The notes beneath the pieces were generated by a model that searched no databases, had not been told where the DNA came from, and was given only the letters and a program-made list of their open reading frames with translations. DNA of 64,000 nucleotides, taken from positions 128,001 through 192,000 of the forward strand of contig CAVWBU010000041.1 in assembly GCA_963753345.1 (NCBI GenBank), in the 5' to 3' direction. A program made the translations under genes and the position numbers. Source of the stretch: an uncultured Fibrobacterota bacterium. Its GTDB lineage: Bacteria; Fibrobacterota; Chitinivibrionia; Chitinivibrionales; FEN-1185. Shown in pieces: positions 1-46,870 of the stretch (position 1 is its first letter; every line of letters begins with the position of its first letter).

Positions 1-152
1 TTAGGGGCGACTGGAGGCCGTGCCAGAGCACGGTGCCGCCCGGACCCGGCCCTGTGGGCCATAGGGCCGTGGCGGCCGGAGGCCGAAGGCCGAGACCAGA
101 AGGAGAACCGACCCCCAGTAGAGCCATGCGGCTCTACTGGGGGAAACGCCTA
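1..152 (-). repeat. Structured repeat family A, copy A1 (truncated by window edge)
   Basis: Reverse complement reads GGCGTT-TCCCCCAGTAGAGCC..GGCTCTACTGGGGG-TCGG..CTCCTTC..GGTCTCGGCCTTCGGCCTC..CCGTGCTCTGGCACGG-CCTCCAGTC..CCTAA, matching the other A copies. Confidence 0.85.
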
Positions 153-177
153 AATTCCAACACGGAATTATTATTTA

Positions 178-831
178 TCAACCAAACATCTCGCCCTCAA
201 CCATCGCGCACAGGCAATGGTACACGGGCTGGTGGAGCTGCTGCACCTTGTACGTAACCTCTTCGGGAACGCACACAAGGACGTCGCAGCCGAGGTCTTT
301 CACTTTGCCGCCGCTCTTGCCGGTAAGGCACACCACGCCAAGCCCGAATATCTTTGCCACCATGATGGCGCGGACCACGTTTTTTGAACTGCCCGACGTG
401 GTGAGAGCCAAAAGCACGTCCCCTTTCCTGCCGTAGCCGAAGACCTGCTGCGCGAAAATCATCTCCGCGTCCTCGTCGTTCGCGATGGCGGTGAGGAGCG
501 GCGAATGCGCCGACAGGGAAACGGCGGGAAGCTGGCGCTGGAGGTGCCTCAGGAGAAACTGCTTGTCATTGAGCGACGACTGGCTTGCCTTGATTCTTTC
601 ACAATCCGCGGTCGTCAGCTTGCGTTTGAGCGCGAATTTGTTCATCAACTCGCCCACGATGTGGTCGGCGTCGGCCGCGCTGCCGCCGTTGCCGCATGCG
701 AGCACCTTGCCGCCGTTCTTGAAGCAGGCGACGAGCAGGTCGAACGCCCGTACAATATCGCCTTCGAACGGCTCAAGCGCCGGATAGGAAGTGAGGCATT
801 CGTCAAGATACTGCTTTGCGGATGATTTCAT
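178..831 (-). CDS. gmhA: Phosphoheptose (sedoheptulose-7-phosphate) isomerase, SIS domain
   Basis: Motifs CGNGGSAADADHIVGEL, TAIAND, IFAQQV, TSGSSKNV, QQLH. Start placed at the ATG of MKSSAK (831); the ORF track extends to 852. Confidence 0.9.
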   Translation of the reverse strand: MKSSAKQYLDECLTSYPALEPFEGDIVRAFDLLVACFKNGGKVLACGNGGSAADADHIVGELMNKFALKRKLTTADCERIKASQSSLNDKQFLLRHLQRQLPAVSLSAHSPLLTAIANDEDAEMIFAQQVFGYGRKGDVLLALTTSGSSKNVVRAIMVAKIFGLGVVCLTGKSGGKVKDLGCDVLVCVPEEVTYKVQQLHQPVYHCLCAMVEGEMFG

Positions 832-867
832 GGGGTACTGCTTTCCAAACAAGAATAAGTAATTGAG

Positions 868-1005
868 TTGGGCGTTACCCCGCTACGCGGGGTCGGCCCT
901 CCTTACGGTCTCGGCCTTCGGCCTCGGGCTGCCTACCACAAAGGCCCTGCGGGCCGTGGTCAGGCAGCACCGCGCTCCAGCGCGGCCTTCAGTCCTGCCT
1001 AACGC
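868..1005 (+). repeat. Structured repeat family A, copy A2
   Basis: TTGGGCGTT-ACCCCGCTACGCGGGGT-CGG..GGTCTCGGCCTTCGGCCTCG..GGCCCTGCGGGCC..CCGCGCTCCAGCGCGG..CAGTCCTGCCTAACGC. Confidence 0.9.
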
Positions 1006-1046
1006 AAAAGACACAACCTGCAATAATCTACCGCTCTTTCGCTCTT

Positions 1047-1078
1047 AACTGTCAACTGCCAACCGTCAACTGTCAACT
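1047..1078. repeat. Heptamer tandem repeat, ~4.5 x AACTGTC
   Basis: aactgtc aactgcc aaccgtc aactgtc aact, directly after the ilvD stop codon. Confidence 0.8.
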
Positions 1079-1079
1079 T

Positions 1080-2916
1080 CTATTCTCTAGGCAATTCGCG
1101 CACCGCCCCCCTGTCGGCCGAGGTGGTGAACAGCGCGTACGCCCTGAGCGCCTCGGAAACCACGCGCCTGCGTTTCGGCTTGAACGCGTTTTTCCCTTTT
1201 TTCAATTCGGCCTTCCTGCGCTTGGCGAGCTCTGCCGCGGAGAGTTTCACGTTGACTTTCCGGCCGGGTATGTCGACCTCGATGATGTCGCCGTTTTTGA
1301 GCAGGCCCACGTCGCCGCCCGCGGCGGCTTCGGGAGAAACATGGCCTATTGACAAACCGGACGATCCCCCGGAGAACCTGCCGTCGGTGAGCAGGGCGCA
1401 GGTGTCGCTCAGATGCATGGACCGCAGATACGACGTGGGATACAGCATTTCCTGCATGCCGGGCCCGCCCTTGGGGCCTTCGTGGATGATGACTACAACG
1501 TCGCCGGCCTTCACCTTGTGCCCGAGGATGCCTTCCGCGGCCTGGTCCTGCGAATGGAACACCTTTGCCGGACCGTGAAAAGCGGAACATGGACGCCGCC
1601 ACGCCGGCGGCTTTCACCACGCAGCCTTTCCGGGCGATATTGCCGAAGAGCACGGCAAGCCCGCCGTCTTTGCTGTAGGGAGTTTTTGCCGACCGGATGC
1701 AGCCTTTCTGCCGGTCTTTGTCGAGTTCCGGATACATCGTGTCCTGGGAGCCGAGCGCGAGGTTGCGCTGGCCGCCGCCGGGCGCGCTGCGGCAATTCTC
1801 GATGGCAAAGGGCAGCACCCGCGGGTCGAGAATGTCGTTCTGCCGGATCACTTCGCCGAGGCTGGCTCCGGCCGCGTGCGGCACGGCGCCGTCGACAAGG
1901 CCGGCGCGGGCAAGCTCGCCCATGATCCCCATGATGCCGCCCGCGCGGTTGACGTCCTCGACATGGAAATGGGAACTCGGCGCCACCTTGCACAGCACCG
2001 GGATCTTCCTCGAGAGCGCGTCGATGTCCTTCATGGTGAAGGCGACGCCCGCGGCATGCGCGATGGCCAGCAGGTGCAGCACGGTATTGGTCGAGCCGCC
2101 CATGGCGATGTCGAGGCTCATGGCGTTGACAAAAGCCTTTCGCGTCGCAATGGAGCGCGGCAGCACCGAGTCGTCGCCCGTTTCGTAATACGCATTTGTC
2201 ATTTCGACGATGCGGCGCGCCGCGTTTTCAAAGAGGCGCAGCCTGTTGGTGTGCGTCGCCACAACGGTACCGTTGCCGGGCAGTGCAATGCCGAGGGCCT
2301 CGTTGAGGCAGTTCATGGAATTGGCGGTAAAGAGCCCGGAGCACGACCCGCACGACGGGCATGCGGCAAACTCGATGTCGCGGATGTCCGCGTCCGGCAC
2401 CGCGCTGTCGGCCGACATCACCATGGCGTCGATCAGGTCGTACTTTCTTCCCTTCCACGTGCCGGCCTCCATGGGCCCGCCCGAGACGAAAATCGCCGGC
2501 ACGTTAAGCCGCATCGCGGCCATCATCATGCCGGGGGTTATCTTGTCGCAGTTGGAAATGCAGATCATGGCGTCGGCCATGTGGGCGTTCATCATGTATT
2601 CGACGCTGTCGGCGATGAGCTCGCGCGACGGCAGCGAGTACAGCATCCCGTCGTGGCCCATGGCGATGCCGTCGTCGATGGCGATGGTGTCGAACTCGGC
2701 CGCGAAACACCCCTGCGCCTCGATGATCGCCTTGATGCGCTGCCCGATGTCGTGGAGATGCACGTGCCCCGGCACGAACTGCGTGAAGGAATTGACAATT
2801 GCAATTATCGGCTTCCCGAACTGCTCCTCTTTCATGCCGTTGGCCCGCCAGAGGCTCCGGGCCCCGGCCATGCGGCGGCCGGCCGTGGTTGTCGCGCTGC
2901 GCAAGGTATGCGTCAT
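1080..2916 (-). CDS. ilvD: Dihydroxy-acid dehydratase; split by one extra base at ~1580 (likely sequencing indel)
   Basis: N-terminal part has [42 protein letters not shown]-terminal part (1080..1562) has [16 protein letters not shown] and TDGRFSGG. Removing one T from a TTTT run gives [10 protein letters not shown] and joins the frames. Confidence 0.95.
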
Positions 2917-29417: not shown

Positions 29418-29582
29418 CTGGGCGTTACCCCAAGTGGAGGCGCAAGGCCGTTTGCCTCCACTTGGGGTCGGCCGTCCTTCCGGTCTCGGCCTTCGGCCTC
29501 GGGCCGCCTCGGCCCTAGGCCGCAAAGCGGCCGGGTCCGGGCGGCATCCCGCTATGGCGGGACCTCCAGTCCTGCCTAACGC
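29418..29582 (+). repeat. Structured repeat family A, copy A3
   Basis: GGGCGTT-ACCCCAAGTGGAGGC..GCCTCCACTTGGGGT-CGG..TCCCGCTATGGCGGGA..CCTAACGC; the conserved tail extends to ~29647. Confidence 0.9.
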
Positions 29583-29678
29583 GCGGCAGAGGAATACCCT
29601 TAAGTCAATTACTTCTTCTCACGCCAATCGGTATCTACAATAAATCAAGCAAGGACTCCTCTTTGAATTTGAAACTAT

Positions 29679-29795
29679 TGAAGAACCCCGCCCCATGTGG
29701 CGGGGATTCTTCCATAGCTAAGGAAACAGAACAACAAATATTCGCCCGCTAACCCCCGCGCCAAGTCGCGGGGAATGCGCGGGCTGTGCTATTCA
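29679..29795. mobile_element. 117-bp MITE-like element with TGAA...TTCA ends and an ACTAT target-site duplication
   Basis: ACTAT at 29674-29678 and 29796-29800; internal hairpins CCCCGCC..GGCGGGG and CCCCGCG..CGCGGGG. Confidence 0.7.
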
Positions 29796-29809
29796 ACTAT
29801 TTCTTTCTC

Positions 29810-29959
29810 GGTGCCCCCGCAGCCGAAGCTTCTTTCTCGCAGCCACATTTCTTGGGGGCTACCCACGAGGGGGTAGCGGAGGACCGGCGTGCGAAATAAA
29901 ACGTTCAGAGATTTGACGGCGCACGCCGGGCCGGAGCGAGGGGGAGGCCTCCCCCCATG
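29810..29959 (+). repeat. Structured repeat family B, copy B1
   Basis: GGTGCCCCC-33nt-TTGGGGGCTACC-CACGAGGGGGTAGCG..hairpin..GCCGGAGCGAGGGGGG-AGGCCT-CCCCCCATG. Confidence 0.88.
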
Positions 29960-30040
29960 TAAATTGCTGATTGCCGATATTTTCCCCGGATTATTTTTAT
30001 GATACAACAATTTCAAGTCTCACCAATAGCTGGAGCCTCC

Positions 30041-30563: not shown

Positions 30564-30594
30564 TACAATGTTCGAAGATACGTCAGTCTTGGCG

Positions 30595-30725
30595 TTGGGC
30601 GCCTGCCCTGGGCACCGGTTCTCCTCCGAGCTCGGCTATTCGCCTCGTTGCCGGTCCACCCTATGCCTGGCGGCCGGGTCGGCCGGCAATCCCGCTTTGG
30701 CGGGACTCTCCGTCGCCCCTGGCGC
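30595..30725 (+). repeat. Structured repeat family A, copy A4 (compensatory closing stem)
   Basis: Closing stem is GCGCC...GGCGC instead of GCGTT...AACGC; CTCGGCTATTCGCCTCG and TCCCGCTTTGGCGGGA are conserved. Confidence 0.85.
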
Positions 30726-32528: not shown

Positions 32529-32651
32529 TGTCAATCCCCCGTTCTTGCAACTTTCCCATCTTCTTTCTTTCTCCGCCGGCATCGCTGAAGGCGGATAGCA
32601 AAGCAACAAAGTAGTTGACCGAAGAACCTTGTGATTCATTTTTTCGCTCGA

Positions 32652-32687
32652 CCTCACCCCCGGCCCCTCTCCCACAGGGAGAGGGGG
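32652..32687 (+). repeat. REP-like palindrome (CCTCACCCC..CCCTCTCC..GGAGAGGG class), copy 1
   Basis: CCTCACCCCCGGCCCCTCTCCCACAGGGAGAGGGG; a second copy lies at 46619-46668. Confidence 0.75.
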
Positions 32688-32755
32688 ACTGCCATTCCAC
32701 ATTTTTTGAATTTGTCAATGTTCCAGCGACTTTGTTGATTCCACAACTCTCCTCG

Positions 32756-32882
32756 GGTGCCCCCACACAGGTGCATGGTTCTGCCTCTGCCTCCTCTTGG
32801 GGAGCACCCAGGAGGGGGTAGCGCAGGACACCGCAGGCCGAAGGCCGAGGAGGCCGGAGCGAGGGGGATACTTCCCCCCATG
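32756..32882 (+). repeat. Structured repeat family B, copy B2
   Basis: GGTGCCCCC-32nt-TTGGGGAGCACC-CAGGAGGGGGTAGCG..GGCCGAAGGCC..GCCGGAGCGAGGGGGATACTTCCCCCCATG. Confidence 0.88.
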
Positions 32883-32898
32883 AATATTCTTGACAGAA

Positions 32899-32929
32899 GA
32901 TTGCTTCGTCTCCGGCTCCTCCCAATGAC
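32899..32929 (+). repeat. REP-like element of the GATTGCTTCG...CAATGAC class
   Basis: GATTGCTTCGTCTCCGGCTCCTCCCAATGAC; recognised from recalled similarity to a widespread repeat class, single copy here. Confidence 0.5.
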
Positions 32930-33041
32930 ACTCTTCTCATTCTGCAATTAACAAGGCCGGCGCTGGAACCTGGAACTTTTCCATCCCGCCGGCCCTGAAC
33001 TAACACCACCCTACTCTACTGCAAACGCCATGCAGCGCGAG

Positions 33042-35145: not shown

Positions 35146-35210
35146 CGGTCCCTCCCTGGGGAAAGTGATTTCGAAGGTGATAAAAGTTGACCCTTCCCTT
35201 TGCTGTATCT

Positions 35211-35239
35211 AATATACCGCCATATTTCGGCATGTGCAA
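35211..35239 (-). promoter_or_regulatory. Putative sigma70-type promoter of the VIT/VWA gene
   Basis: TTGCAC-17 bp-TATATT about 65 bp upstream of the ATG. Confidence 0.55.
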
Positions 35240-35310
35240 GGGGGAGTGAAAGAAAGTGTTTTCTGGCAGAAAACTTTGGGGGTTGGAGAGGAAGAAATCA
35301 AGGAAAAAAC

Positions 35311-35453
35311 TTGGGCGTTCCCCTCGCTGTGCTCGGGGTCGGTCTCCTTCCGGGCTCGGCTATTCGCCTCGTTGCCGCCTGCCACAAGGGCCCTTCGGGC
35401 CGTGGTCAGGCGGCAATCCCGCTATGGCGGGACCGCTCCAGTCCCCCTAACGC
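35311..35453 (+). repeat. Structured repeat family A, copy A5
   Basis: TTGGGCGTT-CCCC..GGGG-TCGG..GGCCCTTCGGGCC..TCCCGCTATGGCGGGA..CCTAACGC; tail ACGCCAATCGGTATC..CAATAAATCA is shared with A3. Confidence 0.9.
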
Positions 35454-35589
35454 GCGGCAAAGGAGATTTATTCAGTCACTTTTCTTTTCTGACGCCAATC
35501 GGTATCCGCAATAAATCACTCAGGGTTTCTTATTCGCATATTCAACTTCTCAACTCCTCAACTACTAAACCTCTCAACCAATCTCCGTG

Positions 35590-35738
35590 GGTGCCCCCAC
35601 ACAGGTGTTTGATTTTCGCAACTGCTTCCACTTGGGGTGCACCCTGGAGGGGGTAGCGGAGGACCGGCCGCATTGTTGTAGGCTTGGACAATTGGATACC
35701 GCGGCCGGGCCGGAGCGAGGGGGAAACTTCCCCCCATG
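35590..35738 (+). repeat. Structured repeat family B, copy B3
   Basis: GGTGCCCCC-33nt-TTGGGGTGCACC-CTGGAGGGGGTAGCGGAGGACCGG..CCGGGCCGGAGCGAGGGGGAAACTTCCCCCCATG. Confidence 0.88.
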
Positions 35739-35766
35739 TAAAGTCTTCTTCTTGTAAACCCGGGGA

Positions 35767-37543
35767 TTATCTTACCAGCAGAATTGACTTGCAAACATTT
35801 GACCCATCGGAGAACAAACACCTCGCATATACAATTCCCGACGCGCCGGCATGGCGCGCGACAAGGCTTGTTTGGTTTCCGACAGGCAGGGTTTCGAGCA
35901 TCTGTCCGGCAACATCGTACAGCGAAATGCGCGTGAGCCTGTTGCGCCCAGCCTGCCGGACGAAAAACACCAGGGAGCCGTTGACGAACCTGTGGGTTAT
36001 TGAACCGTTTTCATTGCCGGGGAAAGCAAGCGGACCGCTTGCCACCGTAGCCATGTTGTAGTACAGGATGCTCAGAATGTCGGTCCCCGCCTTTATGGTG
36101 AGCATGTCGGGATTTGAGTAATTGAGCGCCCAGGCGTGGGTTGCGACAAAGGGATAATCCACCCGCATGCACCTGAACACAGGGCACGAAAGGTCTCTTT
36201 CGCAAAGCTCGCACTGCGCCGACACCTGCACCGAGCTGGAACTCAGAGAAAGGGAAATCACGCCGGATTTGAGCCGCAGTGAATCCACCATGCACTGGGA
36301 ATCGGGCGGCAGTGAGCCGATGGTGTACTTCCCATCGCTCTTCAGATTGTAGTTCGTGCCGTTTCTTGTAAGGGTGATCGTCACGTCAGTGTAGCTTCCG
36401 TCAATGTCGCTCAGCACGATGGAATAGACGGAAGTCCCGTTTCCGTTATAGATGAACGGCGATCGGTTGACCGAATCCTTGAGCGCGGACGGAACCGTCG
36501 CGGCGATGCTCGAAGGATTGAGACGGTACGTGGCCGCGGTCCTGTTCCACTGGTTGTCGAGCAATTCCACGCCGGACCCGTCCCACCGGTTGATGAAATT
36601 TGCGAACCGGTAGTCGGCCGTGCCGATGGGACGGTAGACCCACGTGGTCCCGACCCGGTCCACAAACGTCCCCTGCCTGCCCGCGGCGCCGCGCGGGGAG
36701 ATAAAGGTTATGGCCTGGGTGACGGGCGCGTTGTCGTAAGTGTACTTTGCGCCGAGAAACTTGTAAATGGCGCCGCTTGACGTTCCGGCAAAGCCGCCAT
36801 TGACGCACAGCACGGTGTCGGTAACGCCCGTGCCCAAATCATAATTGGTCTCGGCCCATGCGCCGGGGCCGATGCGGAAATACCGCAGGAGCCCGTTCGA
36901 TCCCAGGAGCCATACCGCGGTGTCGGTCTGGGCGGTTGAATCGTGCGCGCCCTGTATCCGGAACACTTCCTCGCCCGCCAGAAGGTTTGCCGGCTTGAGC
37001 GTGTCCGCGTGGAGCACGGCGAGCGTTGTCGTGGAGAGGCTGACGGCCAGGATGTTCTTCTGGCTGGTCTTGACAAGAAGCTTAACGCTGTCGCCGCCGT
37101 ACACCGGGTTTTTCACAAGGTATACCGGCGAGTTCGCGGAAAGCGTGATGCCGCTCAGCGTTATTGCCGCGGGATCGAAGTAGTCGAGGAAGCAGCTCGT
37201 GCACAGCGGCTTGGGCTGCGGGCACTGGTACTGGGTCTTCATGAGGTACAGGCCGCCTGTGCCGGAAGTAAACACCGCCACCGCCGACGCGGCCGGGCCG
37301 CAGATGTCGTACTGCGCGGGCTTGAGTCCGAGCTCCGCACATCGTGTCGGGAATGGTTATGGTGACGCTGTCGTACGTCGCCTTGCCCCAGTTCCTGTTT
37401 GCAAACGCAGGATGCAGGTACACGTACCCGTTGCTGTCCGGATCGCATTGCGGGAAAGCGGACGCGGCAAGCAAGAGCACTCCAACGGCTGCGCATGCGC
37501 AATGCAGCAGAAGGACTCTCTTTTGTGTACTTGCCCGCCTCAT
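35767..37543 (-). CDS. Secreted Cys-containing hypothetical protein with a C-terminal CTD-like domain; frameshift at ~37340
   Basis: Signal peptide (..LLLAASAFP) in ORF 37082..37567 continues in ORF 35767..37281; tail ISLYDVAGQML..GIVYAR. Start uncertain (37543 or 37567). Confidence 0.65.
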
Positions 37544-37595
37544 TTCAGATACTCCTGAGTTGGCCATGATGAATGCCGTTTGCCGTCACCATACG

Positions 37596-40352
37596 CTACG
37601 GATAAAAGATCAGAACGGATTTTGTTTCCTTGTTGCCCCCGGTTCCGCCTTCCACGCCGCCAATGACGTAGATGAGATCATTCCACGAAGCTGCGGCGCA
37701 GCCGTACCGCGAGTTGGGCAGGTTCTGGCGGACCGTCCACGTATTGAGAACCGGATCGAATTCTTCCACCGACGTGAGGGCCGTGTCGCCCTGATCTGTT
37801 GAAAAAAGCCCGCCGATCGCGTAAATCTTGCCCTTTGCGGTTGCAGCGGCAAACGACAACCGAGCCGTTGTGAGAGGCGTGGCGGTACCAATGCTGTTGG
37901 TTGACGGATCGTACACTTCAACGCTTTTAAGCGGCGCGCAGTCGCTCTGGTTTGAAGATCCTCCAAGACCTCCGATGATGTAAATCTTACCGTTAAGCGC
38001 AACTGCCTGAGGATCGCTGCGTGCCACGTTCAGCGAACATTTCGGCGTCAGGGTTCCGGTCGCCGGGTCCCATGCGTCTATCTGCGAGGAGACCACAAAA
38101 CTCTGACCCGAATACACCAGGCCGCCAATCAGGTACACGGTATCGCCCATGGCGCACGCTGCGGCGTCGTAGCGGTATGCCGGCATCTGGCCTGCCGAAC
38201 CCCACATGCCGCTGGAAATTCCAAACGAATCAACGGACTGAAAATATTCCCGCCCGTTGGTTCCTCCGAACGAATAAATCGCATTTTTTGCGGGTGCAAT
38301 CGCCGCATAAAAGCGGGCGCTGGGAAGAGGCGTAGCAAGCGTCCAGGTTCCGTTTCCGCCGGCTGCATTATATGTTTCCACGGTGCTGTACGAGGTGATG
38401 GTGGCGCCGATTCCGGTGTTGAGGCTCGCCTCGCCTCCCATGGCATAGATAATGCCGTTGACCGCCACCGCAGACAAAAGTCTGCGCGCCTTTGACAAAG
38501 AATCAATGTACGACCAGACATTGACGGGCGTTACGGTCACATTCCACGCAATCGTGTCGGCGCCGCCGAAGCCGTCGGTCACCTGGATCACAATGTGTTT
38601 TCTTCCGGTGTCGGCGACCGCGGGCGTCCAGGACAGCGTGGAGTCGGCAATTGACAGGCCGGAAATCTGGGAAAGTTGGTTGAATCTCAGGGTGTCCTTG
38701 TTGACGTCTGCGACTGCAAGTTTCTGGACGTACGCCGCGCCCACATTTGCCGATTTCTGGATCGCGGCCGTGTCGGTGAGAAAACGCGGAGGCGTGTTTA
38801 TTATTCCCCCGGAACCCATGCCGCCGGGAAGCGAAGGAAAAATCGCATACACGATAACATTGTATTTTTTGATTCCGTTTTTCCATGTTGCGATGGTGTA
38901 CACGGTGTCGGCAACGGAGGGAATGGTTGCGATGGAAGAGAAGATGTCCGTTCCGCCGCCGATGGAATCGGCCGCATAGAGCTGGTACTGTGAAAACGCG
39001 GGGTCGGTTGATTTGTGCCAGATTACCGTCACCGTGCTGTCGGTGGATTTTACGGCAATGACGTTTACCGGAGCGGGCTGGATGTGGACCGCCAAGCTGT
39101 CCCTCCATGTCATGCCGCGGTCGTCAAGGGCATAAACATAAACTTCCTTCACGCCGGCATTGTTCCAAATCCAGGAAAGCGTATCGCTTCCCCGCAATGC
39201 ATCAACGGCCGATTTCTTCATGAACGTCGAATCCGGGGCCTTTGCAAACCAGAAAAGGGTGTCGGTCCGGGTTATGGCGCTCTGGAACGTGGCGGCGATT
39301 TTCACCGTGTCGCCTGCGCTGGCCGTGACAATAGTCGGGCTCACCCTTGACAGTTGTATAACGGGACGCACGTACGACGGCGGCACGGTGTGGATGGAAT
39401 CTTGCAACGAAAACGCGCTCGGATTCGTTCCGTTGTCGAGGGCTTTAACCGCATAAAAATAGTTGTGTTCGGAAGCATCGAGCACGTTCCGGTACACGGA
39501 GTCGACGAAAAACGTGTCTTTCACCGTGTCAAGCGCTGTATAGCCGGCGGAGACGGAGTCCTTTCTGCCGACAATATACCCGTAAAGATCCGAGACACGC
39601 ACGCTGGTCCACGATAGCTTGACAACGCCGGAAACCGTGTCTGCGACAAGTGAAAGTCCGACGGGCGCCGGCGGGTCGCCCGCGGGATCGAGGGACAGGA
39701 CCTTGTCCGGGAGCACGGTTGTCTGCCCCGACGCCACGTTCACCGGTGAATCGATGCCCGTGAGGTAGCCTTGCGCGGAGAAATAAACCTTGTAATTGGT
39801 ATCCTCCGGAACATTCGAAATAACGTATCCTCCGGTGTCGTTGGCTATTGCCATGAATGATGTGCCGGGAATAAAGCAGAACACCGGCGCTGTGGAGGAG
39901 CTTCCAAGGGTGACTTTCCCGGCGATGTTGCCGGGAGCCTTCATGGTGATCTGGCCCAGCTTGATCTGGTAAATCTCGGAATAATTTTTGGGGATGTCGT
40001 TCTTGATATCGGAGACGAATGCCACCAGCGCCTTGCCATTTGCTTTGCAAATGAGATTGTAAGTGCCGCCCCTGAACTGGGAATCGATGAAAACGGAGAA
40101 ATTGCCGTGAGCATCGCTGGTATCGGTACCGCGAAGAGTTGCCGTGGAATCGGCCGCGCCCGTGGAATCTGAAATGAGGGTATCGAGCTTGACAATTGCA
40201 CCCGAGACTTCGTGTCCGCTTTGGTCGACAAGCACGCCCACCACTTCGGAACCCGATCCGCCGACGTTGGCGACGGGCTGCTTTGTGCAATACAATACCA
40301 CGGCCGCAAGGCTGCACAGGAGTACCGCTACCAAAACACGTGAGCGCGTCAT
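37596..40352 (-). CDS. Lipoprotein with carboxypeptidase-regulatory-like, Fn3, Ig and six Kelch repeats
   Basis: VLYC lipobox-like site followed by GGSGSE; IPGTSF motif; repeated IYAxGG...SVExYDP...W Kelch units. Confidence 0.85.
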   Translation of the reverse strand: MTRSRVLVAVLLCSLAAVVLYCTKQPVANVGGSGSEVVGVLVDQSGHEVSGAIVKLDTLISDSTGAADSTATLRGTDTSDAHGNFSVFIDSQFRGGTYNLICKANGKALVAFVSDIKNDIPKNYSEIYQIKLGQITMKAPGNIAGKVTLGSSSTAPVFCFIPGTSFMAIANDTGGYVISNVPEDTNYKVYFSAQGYLTGIDSPVNVASGQTTVLPDKVLSLDPAGDPPAPVGLSLVADTVSGVVKLSWTSVRVSDLYGYIVGRKDSVSAGYTALDTVKDTFFVDSVYRNVLDASEHNYFYAVKALDNGTNPSAFSLQDSIHTVPPSYVRPVIQLSRVSPTIVTASAGDTVKIAATFQSAITRTDTLFWFAKAPDSTFMKKSAVDALRGSDTLSWIWNNAGVKEVYVYALDDRGMTWRDSLAVHIQPAPVNVIAVKSTDSTVTVIWHKSTDPAFSQYQLYAADSIGGGTDIFSSIATIPSVADTVYTIATWKNGIKKYNVIVYAIFPSLPGGMGSGGIINTPPRFLTDTAAIQKSANVGAAYVQKLAVADVNKDTLRFNQLSQISGLSIADSTLSWTPAVADTGRKHIVIQVTDGFGGADTIAWNVTVTPVNVWSYIDSLSKARRLLSAVAVNGIIYAMGGEASLNTGIGATITSYSTVETYNAAGGNGTWTLATPLPSARFYAAIAPAKNAIYSFGGTNGREYFQSVDSFGISSGMWGSAGQMPAYRYDAAACAMGDTVYLIGGLVYSGQSFVVSSQIDAWDPATGTLTPKCSLNVARSDPQAVALNGKIYIIGGLGGSSNQSDCAPLKSVEVYDPSTNSIGTATPLTTARLSFAAATAKGKIYAIGGLFSTDQGDTALTSVEEFDPVLNTWTVRQNLPNSRYGCAAASWNDLIYVIGGVEGGTGGNKETKSVLIFYP

Positions 40353-40359
40353 ATCGTTC

Positions 40360-41196
40360 TTACTGCGGCTTTGGTACGACGACCGGATTGGACATTGGAA
40401 AAACATGGAAATTTATATGGTACACCCTGTCGATGTCCTTGTCGGAACGGACGATTTCGAGAATCTCCCGCCTGAACCGCTTGAGCCGCTCCTCGATCTG
40501 CGCGTACCCTTCAGCCGAGCAGCTGAACGTGAGCGACGACATGCTCCGGCGCTCGCGCGGATACCGGTCGATTGCCTGGCGCGCGAGCTCGGTGGTCGAA
40601 ATCAGAAAGTTGGTAATCGCCAGGGATTTTGCATCGTATCCCGTGGTGATGATATCGTCGACCAGCCGGTAGTACCCGCGTTCGTTTTTCTTGACAAATC
40701 CCATCTCTTCGAGCAGCGCCACCGCTTTTTTCGCTTCGGCCGGCGTGATGGCGGGCGACACCTTCTTCGCAAGCTCGGCGAAATTGCCGTCGAACCTGTA
40801 GAAGTTGAGCACCTCGCGCACCGCGGTGTAATACCACTTGCTGTAGAACTCGTAGTGCTGCGCGTCGGTGACTTTTACCTTCGACTTCTTCGACGCGAGG
40901 ATCTTTTCAAAATAATACTTCTTCTGGTCGTGGTTCTTTGCCTGGTCGAACATGACCAGCAGTTCGAAATACTCGGTCTCCGCGTGCTTCATCTTGAAAA
41001 GCTGCGCAAACTTAAATATAAATTCCGACGAGATGTTCCGCTTTCTCTGAACAACGTTGATGAAGAACCCTGCCGAACTGAACCCCACTTTCTGGGCCAT
41101 GTAGCGGTACGAAAAGAAAGAAAATTCCTTCTTCCTGTCTTCATACAGATCGTTGAGCAGTTTCCGGTAGTCGATGTACTCGTAAATGTCTATCAT
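40360..41196 (-). CDS. TIGR02147 / DUF4423 family protein (Fibrobacterota paralogous family, N-terminal HTH-like region)
   Basis: IYEYIDYRKLL, FSYRYMAQKVGFSS, YFELLVMF, WYYTAVRE, AIDRYPRERR, VYHINFHVFP. Confidence 0.9.
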   Translation of the reverse strand: MIDIYEYIDYRKLLNDLYEDRKKEFSFFSYRYMAQKVGFSSAGFFINVVQRKRNISSEFIFKFAQLFKMKHAETEYFELLVMFDQAKNHDQKKYYFEKILASKKSKVKVTDAQHYEFYSKWYYTAVREVLNFYRFDGNFAELAKKVSPAITPAEAKKAVALLEEMGFVKKNERGYYRLVDDIITTGYDAKSLAITNFLISTTELARQAIDRYPRERRSMSSLTFSCSAEGYAQIEERLKRFRREILEIVRSDKDIDRVYHINFHVFPMSNPVVVPKPQ

Positions 41197-41241
41197 GACG
41201 TACTCTAATCCTTCCAGAGGTCGGGTCGGCCTCTGATGCAA

Positions 41242-41270
41242 AATATACAGTAAACAAAAACCCTATTCAA
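41242..41270 (-). promoter_or_regulatory. Putative sigma70-type promoter of the TIGR02147 operon
   Basis: TTGAAT-17 bp-TATATT about 45 bp upstream of the ATG. Confidence 0.55.
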
Positions 41271-41444
41271 GTGATTTCGACAGAAAGCGTTTTCCTGTAG
41301 AAAACTTTGTCTGAGAGCAATCTTTGTAACTGGTTGTTTTATATGATGATTCAACCTAACTCGGCGATGCACGTTCTGCCATGATCTGGTTCATGAATGC
41401 CGGTAATTCGATCGCGGGAATTCTGGAAGAATCTTCAAATTGAC

Positions 41445-41479
41445 AAATAAAAAAGCCCCGCGCTCTTGCGCAGGGCCTT
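41445..41479 (-). terminator. Intrinsic terminator
   Basis: Minus strand GGCCCTGCGC-AAGA-GCGCGGGGCT-TTTTTATTT after the 41538 gene. Confidence 0.75.
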
Positions 41480-41537
41480 GCAAAACACCGCTTTCGAATC
41501 AAGCCCCGGCCTGGGGAACCCAAGCCGGATGTTGTTT

Positions 41538-43154
41538 CTACTTTGCCAACTTCTTTGCCAACTTCTTGGCAGCAGGAGTGGCAGTCGCCGGCAAGGTCCA
41601 GTAGATGTTATCCATTACCACAGTCTCTCCGGCAACATAGGGCGCCAGGTTAACTCCAAGGAAATAGTCAACATTACTCAAGTCGCATGTCGCGGCCCAC
41701 GCGGACAACGGTATGGCAATGTCGTGCCACACACCGTCAGCTGCATAACCATAGGTTGAAGCGTTCACCCATGTCTGACCAGTATGGGCAAGATTTTCCA
41801 CCAGCAGGGCCACGTCTTGCGCGGAGCTGCTCTTTATCGACACGTGAAGCGTGCAGGCCGCATACGCCGTCATGTCCATGCTCGATAAAGTGCCGCTTCC
41901 GGCAGCAGTGACTGCCGCCCATCCAAATCCTCCCCACGTAGCACCTGATCCCGTGACCGCAACCGCTGGCGTCACGCCGTCTTCTCCCATTGAGTCGGTT
42001 TGATCAATCGTAACGCCGCCACCCGCACCCGTCCACGGGATGAGCTGGAGAATGAGATTGGGACTTAAGGTAGTGGCATCGGTGTAATGCGAGCCCAGGA
42101 GTCCGAATGCCGGCACCTGCGTCGAATACCAGTTCACCGTGCCGCTCTTGGTTTCGTTCATCACGGGGTCGACGTATGAAACCGTAACCATGTCGCTGTC
42201 CTTGACTCCGACCGCTGTTGCAGTCGCGGCGCCAAGGGTGAAACCGACCGTGCCGGTGAATATCGAGGGTGTGGCGGCCATCGCGGTAAGAGTGATGGCG
42301 ACAGTGTCACCCGCCTTGGCACTGCTTACATCCACAACGAGCGTCGCTGCGGAGGTGTGGTCGTTCGTGAGGGAAATTGCTATTTGGTCCGCTGTTCCGT
42401 GGTAGTCGGCGGAGTCGAACGCAAATACGACCGAGGTCGCCAGCCACTGGGCGGAAGCGGAAGTCACGACACTGGGAGTCACCAGACTGGAGTACGTTAC
42501 AGTGACTGAGTCGGTGTTTTTTACGTGGACCGTGTCTTTGCTTGTTATGGCGGTGCTTGCGGTGAAGTACACACTGCCGGTGTACTGACCATAGACGCCG
42601 GAATTCGTAAGCGTCACCGGGAACGGCGTAGGATAAGAAGTGCTCATGACATTGACCGTGGCAGTCTGGCTGGAGATGTTTGGATCGGTAAGCGTAATCA
42701 TCATCGGCGTCGTGATGCCCTGGTACGAAGGATGGTCAAGAGCGACGGTCATTGCCCCGGCTTTCCAGATAATGGTCTGCGTCCGGGTCCCAGCGGGCTT
42801 GGCATCCTTGTACGTAACCGTTACTATGCAGTTCTGATTCACCTGGATCGTGGTGCCCGCTGCAGATGCGGCGGTGGAGAATCCGAGTGCTGCTTTGTAA
42901 ACGCCGCTCTTTCCCGTGAGCAGGACGTTTATGCCAACAGGATCGGCGGTGCTGGTCACCTTGACGGTCTGTGTGTCGGCGCCAAGATCCGCGTCCTTGA
43001 GGGTGATGGTGTCAACACCAGCCGTGCCCATGACCAGAGTGTCATTCATAATGATCTTGCCTTCCGTCCCTTTTGGCTCTGTTCCGCAGCCCGTGGAAAG
43101 GAGAGCGGCAAGTATTGCACTCGCGCCAAGAACTGAAAACAGTACTTTTTTCAT
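41538..43154 (-). CDS. Lipoprotein with three Ig-like repeats and a C-terminal CBM-like (galactose-binding fold) domain
   Basis: Lipobox LSTGC; three repeats ending VTVxYxD-like; WGGFGW...WHDIAIPLSAW...DNIYW; tail AKKLAKKLAK. Confidence 0.7.
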   Translation of the reverse strand: MKKVLFSVLGASAILAALLSTGCGTEPKGTEGKIIMNDTLVMGTAGVDTITLKDADLGADTQTVKVTSTADPVGINVLLTGKSGVYKAALGFSTAASAAGTTIQVNQNCIVTVTYKDAKPAGTRTQTIIWKAGAMTVALDHPSYQGITTPMMITLTDPNISSQTATVNVMSTSYPTPFPVTLTNSGVYGQYTGSVYFTASTAITSKDTVHVKNTDSVTVTYSSLVTPSVVTSASAQWLATSVVFAFDSADYHGTADQIAISLTNDHTSAATLVVDVSSAKAGDTVAITLTAMAATPSIFTGTVGFTLGAATATAVGVKDSDMVTVSYVDPVMNETKSGTVNWYSTQVPAFGLLGSHYTDATTLSPNLILQLIPWTGAGGGVTIDQTDSMGEDGVTPAVAVTGSGATWGGFGWAAVTAAGSGTLSSMDMTAYAACTLHVSIKSSSAQDVALLVENLAHTGQTWVNASTYGYAADGVWHDIAIPLSAWAATCDLSNVDYFLGVNLAPYVAGETVVMDNIYWTLPATATPAAKKLAKKLAK

Positions 43155-43866
43155 CTTTTCTTCCCCTTGATTAAGAATGTTATTGTTTGACGGTTAAAAA
43201 ACCAAAAGTGTAATCACGTGATACCAGCGCGGGCTTTTACCTCCCACCACCCCCTTCTTCCAACAGTTTCCCCCGGCAGAAGCTGTAATCTGGGCTTGAT
43301 TGTTTGATCAATATATTTTGTTTGGTACAAAGAATGAAATCGGAATTTTTGAGGACCCCTCTTCGTCGCAGCACGTTTTAAGCCCACCTCCGGAGAATCC
43401 ATTCCACTACGTTTTAGCAGGTTTCTAATATATGTAGGTTAAGTTGGCTTAAGCAAGAAGAAAAAACTTCCTTTCCGGAAGGTCGCCCTGGTCGCGATTA
43501 TTGCGGGCTGCGCCGAACCTCAGCCTCCTTGAACGAGTGTCCGGTTGATATTCAATCCGTTCCGTCCCCGCTAAAAACCCGGCAATCGCCGTATACAGCT
43601 TGTATACACTTTTTCCCCAGCGGCAGCGGATCCGATTTCAGAAGATTCCCTTCCCCGTGGCCGGTCTCAAAGGTACCGCCAAAAAAAAAATAGAACCTGT
43701 CGTATATTTCCTTCAAGTATGCGATTTTTTTTGTATATTATAAGTTGGTGTATCGGGGGGCATACTTTTATCCCTAATTATGAAGGAGGGCTATGAAGTA
43801 ATCCACCGCACGCTTTGTGATGTTCCGCAGGAAAATAATCATACTTATTCCAGGAGGTTTGTTTCT

Positions 43867-46206
43867 ATGAGAAGTGCAAAGAAAATTTATGCGGTCGCGG
43901 CGGCTCTCATGGCGTGCGCCACCGTATTCGGTCAGAGCGGCGACTTTCAGACCAAAGGCCAGGTGATGTCGGGCAACCAGCCGGTCGCAATGGCCACCGT
44001 CACCTACCTCAATATGGCACAACGTCTGTCCTGGGATTTCTCGCTGACAGACGGCACGTTCGGCGGCGCCACGGTGTCGGCAAAGAACCCGCTTCCGCAG
44101 GACGCGACGGTTTTCCTTCCCTCAGAAGGGAACATTGCCATCGACGTCTTCGAGATGAGCGGGAAACTCGCGGGTACGGTGAGCGGCAAACTTGACAAAG
44201 GCACCTACACCCTGCGACCCCTTGCGGGAAAGCTTGCCCAGTCGATGTACATGCTCCGGATCAGGGCGGGCAACACCGTAACGTATCAGAAGATGCTCAA
44301 CGCGGGATTCAACAACGCGGGCTACACCATCTCCCTGTCGACAAAAAGAGAGCCGCTGGTGATGGCGAAGAAGCTTGCCGCCATCGACTCGATCCGCGTG
44401 GGAAAAACCGGCTACACGCCGGTGGTGGTCCCCATCTCCGCATACACCGACAATGTGGGTATCGTAACGCTGACCCCCGTGGACATTGAAGGCGAGGTCA
44501 ACACGGAATTCGCGAAGCTAACCCAACTCCAGAAATACGGCCAGCTTTGCATGCCGCCATTTACCAGTGTGGGCACGGCTGCAGCGGCGAGCAACTTCTG
44601 CGGCAGTATCTTTGGCGGCGGCGGCTGTTTTAACGGCGGGAACACGCCCTCTTCATGCGCCGACCTGTTTGACGGTTACCAGACAGCAGCGATGGGGAAT
44701 TCGTTAAAAATCCCGCTCCTGATGTCGTACGACGCGGTTCACGGCGCCAGCGCTGTTCCGCAGGTGACCTTTTTCCCGCACAATCTGGGTATGGGCGCAA
44801 TCCAGGACACGCTGCTGTTGCAGAAGGCCTTCCGCGTGTGTGCGCTTGAAGTCCGCGGTTCCGGAGCAAACTGGGGCTTTGGACCCTGCATTGCGGTGAT
44901 CCGCGACGACAGATGGGGACGCTCGTACGAAGGGTTCTGCGAAACGCCTGAGCGCACCCAGATCATGGCACGTCATGCAGTACTCGGGTGCCAGCTTACC
45001 GACATGTCCAACCCCATGTCCTATCTTGCCACATGCAAACACTTTGCGGGTGACGGCAACACCGTAAACGGTGTGAACCAGGGTGAGACTGTTGGGCCCG
45101 ATGCAACGGCCCGTGCAATCAATCTGCCTGGATATGCTTCCGCGGTTGCCGCAGGTGTCGGATGCATCATGCCCTCATTTTCAAGCTGGTGCGACGGCAC
45201 TCCGATGCATCAGAACAAGACTCTCTTGACCGGTTGGCTCAAGTCGACCACAGCCGGCCCGGGATTCCAAGGGTTTGTCGTCGGCGACTGGGAAGCAGGC
45301 TGGCCTCTTCCCACCTGCATGGATGCAGGTCTCGACGTGCCAATGGCGCCGGGCACTAACATTGGAATAATAGCTACTAACGATCCCACCAATAACAATA
45401 ATTTTACGAAATTGGATGCTTTGGGCGGGACCTATCCGGCGCGGATCGATGACGCGGTAAAGCGTGTGCTTCGCGTAAAATACTGGATGAACCTGTTCGA
45501 CCCGAAGAATTACATGACCGACCGGAGGCTCACGGCACTTGTCGGATGCGCAGCGCACCGGGACGTGGCCCGCGCATGCGTGAGGGCCTCGTGCGTTCTT
45601 CTCAAGAACGCCGGTCCTGTCATTCCGATTCCCAAGACCGCGAATGTCGCGATATTGGGCCAGGCTGGAAACGATGTCGGTATCCAGTGCGGCGGATGGA
45701 CCGTGAGCTGGCAGGGCCAGCAGGGTGCGATACCCGGCGGCGGCGGCACCACAATCTTGCAGGGTGTCCAGTCGCTCTGCACGGGCACGGTGACCAGTTC
45801 TGGGACTTCCGATTATAATATTGTAGTCCTCAGCGAAAATCCCTATGCGGAAACGAGTTTCCCCAACGTCGCCATAACCGGCAATGACGCGACCGGCACG
45901 AACGCATCAGTCATTACGCAGGCCGCCGCGGCGCATGCCGCCGGGAAAAAGGTCATCGGCATTCTCATTGCCGGAAGGGCGCTTGACATATCGGGAATCC
46001 TTCCCAGCTGCGACGCGTTTATCTGGGCCTGCCTGCCCGGCTCCGAAGGCGGACTCGGCATAGCGCAACTGCTGTTTAAGGACCAGGGATACGCATTCTC
46101 CGGCAAGCTGCAGGTTACGTGGCCCAACAACTCGACCAATGAACCCATCAACGCCGGAGACGGACAAACCGGTTTGTTCGCCTACGGCTTCGGACTCACC
46201 GACTAG
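43867..46206 (+). CDS. Secreted GH3 beta-glucosidase/exo-glucanase with the nested N-terminal module
   Basis: DAVHG, FPHNLGMGA, RWGRSYE, KHFAGDG, GFVVGDW (nucleophile), CGGWTVSWQG, ENPYAE, LPGSEG, FAYGFGL; GGAGG RBS. Confidence 0.93.
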   Translation: MRSAKKIYAVAAALMACATVFGQSGDFQTKGQVMSGNQPVAMATVTYLNMAQRLSWDFSLTDGTFGGATVSAKNPLPQDATVFLPSEGNIAIDVFEMSGKLAGTVSGKLDKGTYTLRPLAGKLAQSMYMLRIRAGNTVTYQKMLNAGFNNAGYTISLSTKREPLVMAKKLAAIDSIRVGKTGYTPVVVPISAYTDNVGIVTLTPVDIEGEVNTEFAKLTQLQKYGQLCMPPFTSVGTAAAASNFCGSIFGGGGCFNGGNTPSSCADLFDGYQTAAMGNSLKIPLLMSYDAVHGASAVPQVTFFPHNLGMGAIQDTLLLQKAFRVCALEVRGSGANWGFGPCIAVIRDDRWGRSYEGFCETPERTQIMARHAVLGCQLTDMSNPMSYLATCKHFAGDGNTVNGVNQGETVGPDATARAINLPGYASAVAAGVGCIMPSFSSWCDGTPMHQNKTLLTGWLKSTTAGPGFQGFVVGDWEAGWPLPTCMDAGLDVPMAPGTNIGIIATNDPTNNNNFTKLDALGGTYPARIDDAVKRVLRVKYWMNLFDPKNYMTDRRLTALVGCAAHRDVARACVRASCVLLKNAGPVIPIPKTANVAILGQAGNDVGIQCGGWTVSWQGQQGAIPGGGGTTILQGVQSLCTGTVTSSGTSDYNIVVLSENPYAETSFPNVAITGNDATGTNASVITQAAAAHAAGKKVIGILIAGRALDISGILPSCDAFIWACLPGSEGGLGIAQLLFKDQGYAFSGKLQVTWPNNSTNEPINAGDGQTGLFAYGFGLTD

Positions 46207-46233
46207 CGTTGTCCGATTTTCCCGCCCTTTCTC

Positions 46234-46270
46234 GCAGCCGCGGAATCCTCTCCGCGGCTGTTTTTTATTT
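46234..46270 (+). terminator. Intrinsic terminator of the GH3 gene
   Basis: CAGCCGCGGA-ATCCTC-TCCGCGGCTG-TTTTTTATTT. Confidence 0.85.
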
Positions 46271-46284
46271 ATAGGTCATGTTTT

Positions 46285-46440
46285 GGTGGGGGAAGTGTCC
46301 CCCTAGGGTGCAGCCTCCTCGGAAAGGTCTTGATTCGTCTGGTTTGTTAACCTTTCCTGCTGAGTCTGCACCCATACCCCCTCGTGGGTAGCCCCCAAGG
46401 AAGTTTAGCGGCGAGAAAAATGCCTCGGTTGGGGGGCACC
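46285..46440 (-). repeat. Structured repeat family B, copy B4
   Basis: Reverse complement GGTGCCCCC-33nt-TTGGGGGCTACCCACGAGGGGGTA..GGGTGCAG..CTGCACCC..AGGGGGACACTTCCCCC. Confidence 0.85.
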
Positions 46441-46447
46441 GAGAAAA

Positions 46448-46668
46448 ATTGTAGATTGCGGAATGCGGATTTTGGATTGAAAAAAGAAAGCAAGAAGTTC
46501 ATTGCGATCGAATCTCCCGAACTCGCACTTAAAGCATTTTGCTCTTCAGCCACATCGTGGCGCAATATTTATAGCCCGGGGCAACGCCCCGGGAATACAA
46601 AAATATCAATGCACAATTCCCCTCTCCACCTGTGGAGAGGGGTGGCCGCGACAGCGGACGGGGTGAGG
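46448..46668. repeat. Cluster of short repeats between B4 and A6
   Basis: Heptamers aattgta gattgcg gaatgcg gattttg (46448-46479, like those at 7618); CCCGGGGC-AAC-GCCCCGGG palindrome (46575-46593); REP of the CCTCACCCC class on the minus strand (46619-46668). Confidence 0.75.
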
Positions 46669-46731
46669 CGACTGTGCACCGCGGGCTTGGCGTAAAAAGA
46701 AGTAATTGACAGAATAGATTCCCTCTGCCGC

Positions 46732-46870
46732 GCGTTAGGTGGACCGGAGGGTGCGCTGGAGCGCATTGCCGTATGACAGCGGCCCGAAGGGCCATCGCGG
46801 CAGGCGGCAACGAGGCCGAATGGCCGAGCCCGGAGGGAGACCGGCCCGAGCGTGGCGAGGGCAACGCCCA
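46732..46870 (-). repeat. Structured repeat family A, copy A6
   Basis: Reverse complement GGGCGTT-GCCC..GGGC-CGG..GGCCCTTCGGGCC..TGCGCTCCAGCGCA..CCTAACGC, then the GCGGCAGAGG..GTCAATTACTTCTT..ACGCCAA tail. Confidence 0.88.

Follow-up and report, generated by a model that had tools for sequence, protein, structure and literature searches.

A multi-hairpin repeat family of an uncultured Fibrobacterota bacterium, best read as the folded module of a REP/BIME/BOX-like interspersed repeat

Background

Repeat family A is a set of multi-hairpin elements lying between the genes of an uncultured bacterium of the order Chitinivibrionales (phylum Fibrobacterota). It was noticed in a stretch of 64,000 nucleotides (nt), hereafter the window, which corresponds to positions 128,001 to 192,000 of contig CAVWBU010000041.1 in assembly GCA_963753345.1 (G000:C41:128001-192000 in our numbering). 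The genome, G000, comprises 4.52 Mb in 55 contigs, has a G+C content of 55.9% and is 94% complete. The window was detected in 12 sequencing runs from 6 studies, with no RNA run among those listed. A preliminary description, made from the letters of the window alone, reported six elements joined by compensatory base changes, took these changes as a sign that selection maintains the structure, and saw in some of the loops a hint that the substrate is single-stranded DNA.

Here we describe the fold, the neighbourhood, the distribution and the turnover of this family. On the best reading of the evidence, family A supplies the main folded module of an interspersed repeat that is modular, encodes nothing and is of the REP/BIME/BOX kind, unusual in the complexity of its fold and in the turnover of modules that could be measured. 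A search of the literature on repeats in Chitinivibrionales and in Fibrobacteres/Fibrobacterota, taken at the level of search results, returned no description of such a repeat.

Results

Six copies of family A and their neighbours in the window

A covariance model, R1, of 141 positions and 38 base pairs rests on 44 copies, of which five lie in the window and the other 39 elsewhere in G000. It gives exactly six matches in the window, each within 2 nt of where the preliminary description had placed a copy. The six copies are also linked to each other, independently of R1, by a repeat search (direct repeat D20, inverted repeats I1-I7), and their G+C content is 65-83%.

Copy 1 (1..151, minus strand; 103.7 bits over model positions 1-138) is cut at its 3' end by the start of the window and continues in the genome to C41:127988 (nhmmer match C41:127988-128161). 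Its A-rich leader occupies about 152-177 and is followed at 178 by the stop codon of a SIS-domain gene (178-852, minus strand; Pfam SIS_2). Copy 2 (870..1005, plus strand), which at 133.8 bits has the top score in the genome, lies between the start of that gene and the end of a dihydroxy-acid dehydratase gene (Pfam); its first hairpin is short, and the 3' extension conserved in many other copies is missing. Copy 3 (29420..29582, plus strand; 110.9 bits) has a long first hairpin and is followed by such an extension (29583..29660, plus strand), which was recognised from repeats D13 (with 35446-35547) and I5 (with 46687-46739) and from the conservation profile, and in which a small hairpin is followed by a GTCAA motif, then by GCCAA, and finally by a tail that is short and conserved. 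Further 3' and in the same orientation lies a second folded block, B (29795..29975, plus strand), supported by repeats D15/D16, the B seed alignment and nhmmer.

Copy 4 (30597..30725, plus strand; 75.2 bits, and alignment) has a very short first hairpin and starts about 33 nt past the stop of a zinc-ribbon gene (29999-30564, plus strand). This gene appears as two overlapping open reading frames (ORFs), 29999-30370 and 30282-30563, whose frames differ; it may contain a frameshift or represent two small genes. At 32740..32900 (plus strand) repeats D15/D16 mark a solo B block of the same composite system with no A core upstream. A composite begins with copy 5 (35313..35453, plus strand; 120.7 bits) and continues through a 3' extension and a short tract of 8-nt units containing TCAAC (35454..35579, plus strand; repeat D13 and genome-wide order) into a B block (35580..35755, plus strand; repeats D15/D16), whose end is about 12 nt from the stop, at 35767, of a convergent gene (35767-37281, minus strand). 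Copy 6 (46732..46869, minus strand; 109.0 bits) lies about 35 nt past the stop of a gene with TPR and spermine-synthase domains (46905-50024, minus strand; Pfam), and its 3' extension (46687..46731, minus strand) is marked by inverted repeats I3 and I5. At 46620-46680 (minus strand), and in several other 3' flanks, a small hairpin repeat, CCCCTCTCC-loop-GGAGAGGGG, recurs downstream of A extensions.

The genes around the window copies are housekeeping genes of metabolism and the envelope, with Pfam matches that are ilvD-like, rpe/DeoC, GH3 and VWA. An origin of family A from tRNA or tmRNA genes was ruled out, ARAGORN finding none of either in the window.

A closing stem around covarying hairpins

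The core modelled by R1 has its 38 pairs in 8 helix segments with 3 branch points. On the given strand its parts are a 5-bp closing stem; hairpin 1, whose length varies from 11 to more than 45 nt; a CU-rich stretch that is conserved; hairpin 3, of 4 bp and a loop of 3 to 5 nt; hairpin 4, built in three tiers; hairpin 5, of 5-6 bp and a loop of 4 nt; and a 3' linker, likewise conserved and CU-rich. On either strand the core folds into a closing stem around four well-supported hairpins, with a fifth, small hairpin that we include tentatively. A hairpin 2 (CGG/CCG) and a long-range GGY/RCC helix were considered by eye, found no clean support and were left out of the model.

Covariation was scored in two sets of mutually related copies: 127 copies aligned to R1, and hence fitted to the model, and 44 copies aligned with MAFFT blind to structure. 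In the first set 88.4% of the cells are paired compared with 74.4% after shuffling (a value that none of 500 shuffles reaches), and the covariation score is 0.297 compared with 0.116 in shuffles and at most 0.060 when partners are slid. The structure-blind set gives 84.7% paired against 74.3%, and a score of 0.240 against 0.100 in shuffles and at most 0.090 with slid partners. Changes on both sides occur in 29 of the 38 pairs of the 127-copy alignment. Two other measures did not help: mutual information, computed over 331 copies, mainly reflects subfamily linkage and cannot be used on its own, and single-sequence folding, with z-scores of -0.7 to -3.9, gives energies and z-scores that are alike for both strands and both parameter sets and do not discriminate.

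Several particulars of the preliminary description are borne out by these alignments. The closing stem alternates between GCGTT/AACGC and GCGCC/GGCGC, the latter state being that of the copy at 30597; its two variable pairs are UA in 73 and CG in 42 of the 127 copies (12 other), and UA in 81 and CG in 35 (11 other), and the states UA/UA and CG/CG track the type of hairpin 1 and not the interior modules. The first hairpin varies in length (about 11 to more than 45 nt) and remains paired, the last occurs as several compensated alleles, and the unpaired linkers are among the most conserved positions. In addition, an extra long-range pair, 132-513, joins the loop of the CU-rich stretch to the 3' linker (TA in 59 copies, CG in 51, 5 exceptions) and covaries across backgrounds.

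The copies are mosaics of a few alleles per hairpin, and this bears on how the covariation arose. In 98 pairs of nearest-neighbour copies (median divergence 7.8%), paired positions differ by 8.9% and unpaired ones by 10.0%; 151 base pairs are changed on both sides where 25.8 are expected, and 116 of these are canonical in both copies. At least two base pairs differ in 63 helices. Helices with exactly one differing pair comprise 16 compensated doubles, 12 other doubles, 35 singles with a non-canonical pair and 9 wobble singles. Most of the covariation is thus of whole hairpin alleles travelling as units, so that the covariation cells are not independent events, and a smaller excess of isolated compensated changes remains. 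That alternative hairpin alleles share the same shape nonetheless speaks for a constraint on it. The earlier proposal that selection maintains the structure stands insofar as the fold is kept through paired changes that include the closing stem and the long-range pair; these changes are, however, mostly swaps of whole alleles and not double substitutions in place.

The core belongs to a larger, directional composite

In anchored profiles the 5' edge of the A core (T-G-G-G-C-G) is sharp, and before it stands a conserved tract, rich in A and about 10-15 nt long. At the other end, conservation in many copies runs about 55-75 nt past the 3' end first assigned to the element, and motifs recur after the closing stem: a small hairpin, GTCAA (216 of 354 copies) and GCGCCAA (161 of 354). 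The A-rich leader, the 3' extension and the membership of the core in a larger composite had all been missed. The order of this composite is directional: A-rich leader, A core, 3' extension, (NNNTCAAC)n, B.

Block B is a folded unit of about 160 nt with 289 matches in G000 (265 at 40 bits or more), which make up 0.94% of the genome. Of the 361 cores, 173 have a B block no more than 500 nt downstream, in every case in the same orientation; none has B upstream or inverted. Arrays of at least three TCAAC octamers number 176 in the genome (window example 35540-35580, plus strand); such arrays follow 93 cores, with one in the opposite orientation and two upstream. On the given strand the octamers are G-poor and C/U-rich, a composition that we take to be reminiscent of Rho loading sites. 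B terminates in a G5-N-C5 hairpin.

A cores also form doublets, of which 24 are tail-to-tail (48 of 361 copies), two direct and none head-to-head. The tail-to-tail gaps span 86-183 nt and cluster at about 105-112 nt, which fits a unit ending about 54 nt after the core; a doublet spacing of about 108 nt also agrees with a 3' boundary at the GCGCCAA that closes the extension.

Smaller modules are nested within the core. One hairpin, about 40 nt long, takes the place of hairpin 1 in some cores and lies within hairpin 4 in others. In four A cores (C47:110517-110744, C28:66892-67124, C31:13519-13756 and C47:69238-69495) the inside of hairpin 4 is replaced by an AT-rich palindromic element of about 115 nt with inverted ends, which resembles a MITE (a miniature transposable element with inverted repeats); the junctions are identical and the other alleles of these cores differ. 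A mini-hairpin of about 29 nt shares one position in many A cores, and a few carry it elsewhere (L001:19111-19288, minus strand; L004:14154-14344, minus strand; L014:5588-5778, plus strand; all in G000); it behaves like a tiny module of its own that can move or be converted. In front of some cores stands a piece, 7 to 24 nt long, of the 5' end of another core, together with a leader. A palindromic 'mini' form (5' end, hairpin, inverted 5' end) was rejected as a class, its pattern giving 43 matches against 24 in shuffles and one real case (C26:231388).

Hundreds of copies, almost all between genes

An nhmmer profile built from the six window copies gave 405 matches in G000, of which 361 are near full length (175 on the plus and 186 on the minus strand). 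Family A amounts to 1.44% of the genome, and A and B together to 2.4%. The spacer counts that follow rest on crude, ORF-based gene calls (3162 genes, 78% coverage). Only four of the 361 near-full copies lie inside called genes, and an A copy is present in 334 of the 1427 spacers of at least 150 nt, A or B in 403. Placement relative to genes was scored for 340 copies, with 2771 spacers as the baseline: convergent spacers hold 104 copies (398 spacers in the baseline, a twofold enrichment), divergent spacers 59 (400), and co-directional spacers 177, 108 one way and 69 the other (1973).

The two blocks differ in their relation to transcription. Solo A cores between co-directional genes show no preference, with 45 in one orientation and 46 in the other. 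The 5' end of solo A is at a median distance of 16.5 nt where the core lies behind a co-oriented gene, and of 107 nt where its neighbour is a divergent start. Solo B blocks between co-directional genes have a strong orientation bias, 40 against 6. The end of B lies a median of 19 nt from the stop of a convergent gene, and such a gene is faced by 105 of 166 composites and 66 of 84 solo B blocks.

Assembled contigs of four DNA runs break at every repeat over 28500-47500, where read depth at the repeats is 10-50 times that of unique sequence; as regards insertion polymorphism, no contig from these runs bridges a copy or an empty site in this interval.

The two strands of the fold compared

C-GNA-G triloops and the tandem G-A motif are extra-stable in DNA. 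The triloops that had been reported on the complementary strand are common there and share their places with others: on the given strand T-N-C makes up 45 of the 93 three-base loops in hairpin 3, and at hairpin 4's tip 52 of 80, so that the complement has G-N-A in 97 of 173, and ACA (19) and further loops occur too. A conserved TC/TC mismatch in hairpin 1 and in one allele of hairpin 5 corresponds to a tandem G-A on the complement. Hairpin 1 is more stable on the complement (-11.3 against -7.7 kcal/mol, n=78), and in four of four copies the whole fold is 1.5 to 5.8 kcal/mol more stable on the complement as RNA. The complement is on the locally G-rich strand in 181 of 313 copies (132 opposite). 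The comparison of G-U with A-C mispairs that had been suggested as a check is flat (123 against 118), in a count partly confounded by subfamily misalignment in two helices. As to the hint of a single-stranded DNA substrate, the triloops and tandem G-A pairs are in keeping with it, and this comparison is neutral.

Distribution within the phylum

The search of other genomes with R1 covered samples of each group, so that its negatives read as 'not found' and not as 'absent'. Overall, 10 of the 151 genomes of the phylum sample match. In four of five other members of the genus (G001, G002, G004 and G005) the family saturates the search, all 78 scored candidates matching, and in the fifth, G003, which is 99% complete, none of 78 does. 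No match was found in G006 and G007, from two other genera of the family, or in 79 genomes of ten families outside the order. Within the order, six genomes of three other families (G018, G022, G016, G033, G081 and G135) have one to four weak matches each, and the single genome sampled from a fourth (G013) has one marginal match (E 5.5e-4). Termini as well as loop and linker motifs are preserved in the distant copies, which sit among ordinary genes (lipid A acyltransferase, ThiI-like, NUDIX). Family A grew from a low-copy element found across the order into hundreds of copies within a single lineage of one genus. A scan of genome contigs with a degenerate 21-nt core motif was uninformative, giving at least 118 single matches in unrelated GC-rich taxa.

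Turnover between and within species

Individual sites change within the genus. At the site of copy 3, G000, G005 and G002 each carry a copy, with hairpin alleles that differ among them, and no match was obtained in G004 and G003; the spacer of copy 5, 644 nt in G000, is about 220 nt in G004 and has no R1 match there. The sister species G001 has about 90% DNA identity to G000 and conserved gene order. Among 29 copies of G001 in 21 loci, 22 have a G000 copy within 500 nt and seven do not. Three of the seven unmatched sites were aligned: in G000 the first has an AT-rich palindrome that is unrelated, the second has octamer arrays, inverted and with neither A nor B, and the third has a mini-copy that is rearranged.

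Orthologous cores at 18 shared sites have a median identity of 79% (range 69-94%), while neighbouring codon positions 1, 2 and 3 are 95.1%, 96.4% and 80.7% identical between the two species. At 16 of these sites the identity, with a median of 79% to the orthologue, reaches 91% to the best paralogue within G000 and 93% between the G001 copy and its best non-orthologous counterpart in G000; the orthologue is the closest copy at only one of the 16. Since orthologues are 79% alike and better matches exist elsewhere in the genome, whole hairpin modules have been shuffled between copies. G000 and G001 share one pool of variants, and positions have been overwritten since they split, an indication that dispersed copies undergo gene conversion or replace one another. 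A copy in G000 is at a median distance of 8% from its nearest neighbour in sequence, and near-identical partners exist for only 12 of 331 distinct copies, some of which lie on duplicated small contigs. There was no recent burst.

Other repeats in the window

Two further repeats were seen in the window. Five tandem 291-nt repeats lie at 13095-14558, within a long ORF (12765-15152), and four tandem, diverged paralogous units of about 1.65 kb each occupy 16000-22900 on the minus strand; repeats D1-D11, D14 and D17-D19 mark these two regions.

Discussion

Relation to known repeats

The preliminary description had made novelty depend on the lack of an Rfam or REP match. No family of Rfam 15 matches in the 64-kb window; over two copies and their flanks the best sub-threshold score is 27.4 bits against a threshold of 50 (E = 0.019). 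With REP the answer is divided, for family A resembles REP, BIME and BOX elements in behaviour, though failing their defining features. Like the REP/BIME/REPIN-RAYT repeats of Enterobacteria and Pseudomonas, it has hundreds of GC-rich extragenic hairpin copies, mosaic units and inverted doublets, and is enriched at gene ends in either orientation relative to transcription. A REP is a single palindrome of 20-40 nt, however, whereas the A core has 141 positions, several hairpins, a long-range closing stem and conserved loops and junctions; moreover, G000 has no RAYT above the cut-off, and its one sub-threshold Y1-like ORF is not flanked by A.

Family A is even closer to the BOX elements than to REP/BIME. 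Those described in Streptococcus pneumoniae and S. suis by Croucher et al. (2011, PMC3049150) have the order boxA - boxB(n) - boxC, and, as here, form a directional intergenic composite of two large folded end modules with a variable tandem array between them, which has much predicted structure, proliferated in the past, shows little current transposition and has no proven mobilising enzyme. The tandem unit here is 8 nt as against about 45 nt in BOX, the A core is closed by a stem of its own and does not pair with the other end module, roughly one A core in two lacks B, and the phylum is unrelated; the likeness drawn here is one of architecture.

Other systems share single features. MITEs such as Correia, ERIC/IRU, RUP and Nezha (the same paper and general background) are likewise non-coding, folded, intergenic, 100-250 bp long and numerous. 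The NTS/SRM repeats of Chenal et al. (2025, PMC11893778) are hundreds of oriented hairpin repeats of about 30 bp that are read by Ssn GIY-YIG single-strand nucleases; they resemble family A in lying near ordinary genes, they act as single-stranded DNA, and GIY-YIG genes are present in G000. They differ in being single hairpins, and A shows no association with GIY-YIG genes. Integron attC sites also have a structure conserved above sequence, are read as a folded single strand and sit just behind genes; family A, unlike them, is dispersed among housekeeping genes on all contigs in both orientations and forms no cassette arrays.

A proposed non-autonomous DNA element homogenised by recombination

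As to what maintains such a repeat, we give about an even chance to the following: family A is a non-autonomous DNA element; recombination spreads its modules and makes them alike, and a partner recognises the fold in single-stranded form. Its shape would then persist because the agent by which the element is copied, converted or tolerated recognises the folded single strand, which would more probably be the complement, exposed as single-stranded DNA or in a read-through transcript. When transcribed, the element might also act as a stable block of structure at gene ends in either orientation, as REP elements do.

A number of observations weigh against a non-autonomous DNA element. The three comparisons of a filled G001 site with G000 yielded neither a target-site duplication nor a clean empty site. 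The 5' TTGGGCG and the GCGCCAA at the end of the extension match as inverted repeats only with a 1-nt shift, and the terminal inverted repeats are weak; unlike MITEs, family A has no clear terminal inverted repeats, target-site duplication or matching insertion sequence, is GC-rich, and has several hairpins that covary independently. The strand tests disagree or are flat, the orientation by GC skew being only 181 to 132. PF01797 (Y1/RAYT) has no match in G000 at E <= 0.001, and R1 has none in the 3.2-kb locus, L173, of the one ORF that scores below the cut-off (18.3 bits against 23). RVT_1 was not found in G000 or G005, nor a TnpB domain in five genomes, and in the crude ORF calls of G000 no protein family has more than five members at 70% identity or above. 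Conserved loops and junctions, a long-range closing stem and an extra covarying pair are more typical of functional RNA than of known DNA repeats, and the abutment of B ends on convergent stop codons hints at a role of the composite at the transcript level.

Whatever spreads the family, the enzyme is not a RAYT, a reverse transcriptase, a TnpB or a multi-copy insertion-sequence transposase of this genome, whose largest protein clusters are fragments or duplicated small contigs. PF01797 has eight matches in G002 and two each in G004 and G005; in G002 at least six identical genes for a Y1 transposase of 144 amino acids form an IS200-like element that has no counterpart in G000. Locus L173 (G000:C27:259555-262773) contains a GIY-YIG ORF of 101 amino acids within four copies of a 111-nt hairpin array, beside the ORF with the sub-threshold Y1-transposase match and a gene for a type I restriction S subunit.

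Alternative explanations

Foremost among the alternatives, and possible although we consider it doubtful, is that family A, by itself or joined to its extension, the octamers and B, is a cis-acting RNA module selected by the host when transcribed at gene ends or between cistrons, for the protection of mRNA 3' ends, the attenuation or termination of read-through, or the insulation of adjacent transcription units, which spread because it is useful. The closeness of unit ends to stop codons, both for solo A and for B, the twofold enrichment in convergent spacers, the orientation preference of solo B, the conserved loops with the long-range stem and the tertiary-like pair, and a T-rich tract that follows the fold on the complementary strand are all consistent with it. 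Over the 7.3 kb of 28900-36200, intrinsic-terminator-like sites number 9 compared with 8.3 in shuffles, which suggests that another 3'-end device may be needed and that the organism may rely on 3'-end signals other than classical terminators. None of these terminator-like sites, however, and no promoter-like site either, is called at any copy in that interval, so a reading of the A core as a terminator was set aside; the T-tract begins about 5 nt after the closing stem. Further arguments against a cis-acting role are that solo A has no orientation preference, that divergent, promoter-side spacers hold 59 of the 340 copies, which is the baseline frequency, and that orthologous copies diverge at about the synonymous rate; and the lack of a match in one nearly complete congener and in two other genera of the family suggests that the element is dispensable.

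It is unlikely that the core represents a new class of structured nucleic-acid element in which the fold itself is active, either as the single-stranded DNA substrate of a copying or conversion enzyme other than a RAYT, or as a catalytic or protein-recruiting RNA. If true, this would explain hundreds of copies and the exchange of modules without a transposase, a reverse transcriptase or terminal repeats.

Somewhat more improbable is a host function as single-stranded DNA, in which the folded complement would be a recognition site for an Ssn-type nuclease or for a protein of replication, repair or the nucleoid. The model for this is Neisseria, where NTS repeats modulate transformation and a small GIY-YIG nuclease is described that reads hundreds of hairpin repeats (Chenal et al., PMC11893778). 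The GNA triloops and conserved tandem G-A pairs of the complement, its more frequent position on the G-rich strand and the presence of small GIY-YIG genes in G000 would fit. On the other hand, the strand bias is weak and the G-T against A-C comparison flat, and A is five times longer than the NTS motif of roughly 30 bp. GIY-YIG genes occur in all five genomes checked, G003 with no family A among them; only one of the six GIY-YIG loci in these genomes has a strong R1 match, and one of the two small GIY-YIG genes of G000 is wrapped by the different, 111-nt array with no A nearby.

We regard it as very unlikely that the copies are independently transcribed small RNAs or ribozyme-like RNAs acting in trans or on themselves, even though a multi-helix junction with invariant unpaired nucleotides, covarying stems, and termini and loop motifs conserved across the order would suit such an RNA, which would then be new, as no known family matches. 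Neither side of the element has conserved promoter-like sequence, the upstream conservation being only the A-rich tract and the promoter scan negative at the copies; some 360 copies diverge at a neutral rate between species, many carry insertions nested in their hairpins, and one congener is without the family. Least probable of all is that no selection acts on the structure and that intra-strand template switching and gene conversion keep up the hairpins of a selfish palindromic repeat, for although whole-helix swaps outnumber isolated compensated pairs (63 helices to 16), conversion between copies is frequent and paired and unpaired positions diverge similarly, the strands of the closing stem covary about 130 nt apart while the interior is reshuffled, within-hairpin template switching leaves the 132-513 pair unexplained, the TC/TC mismatches are conserved and not corrected, and the unpaired linkers are among the most conserved positions.

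Implications

Interspersed repeats of bacteria are usually simple palindromes, and here a multi-hairpin fold of 141 positions is kept across an order of uncultured bacteria. The comparison of sister species indicates that hairpin modules are exchanged faster than point changes accumulate. In these genomes the family accounts for a large share of the long intergenic spacers and for the breaks in their assembly. It provides a natural experiment on how a structure is preserved, by selection, by conversion or by both, and on how a repeat spreads with no recognisable transposase.

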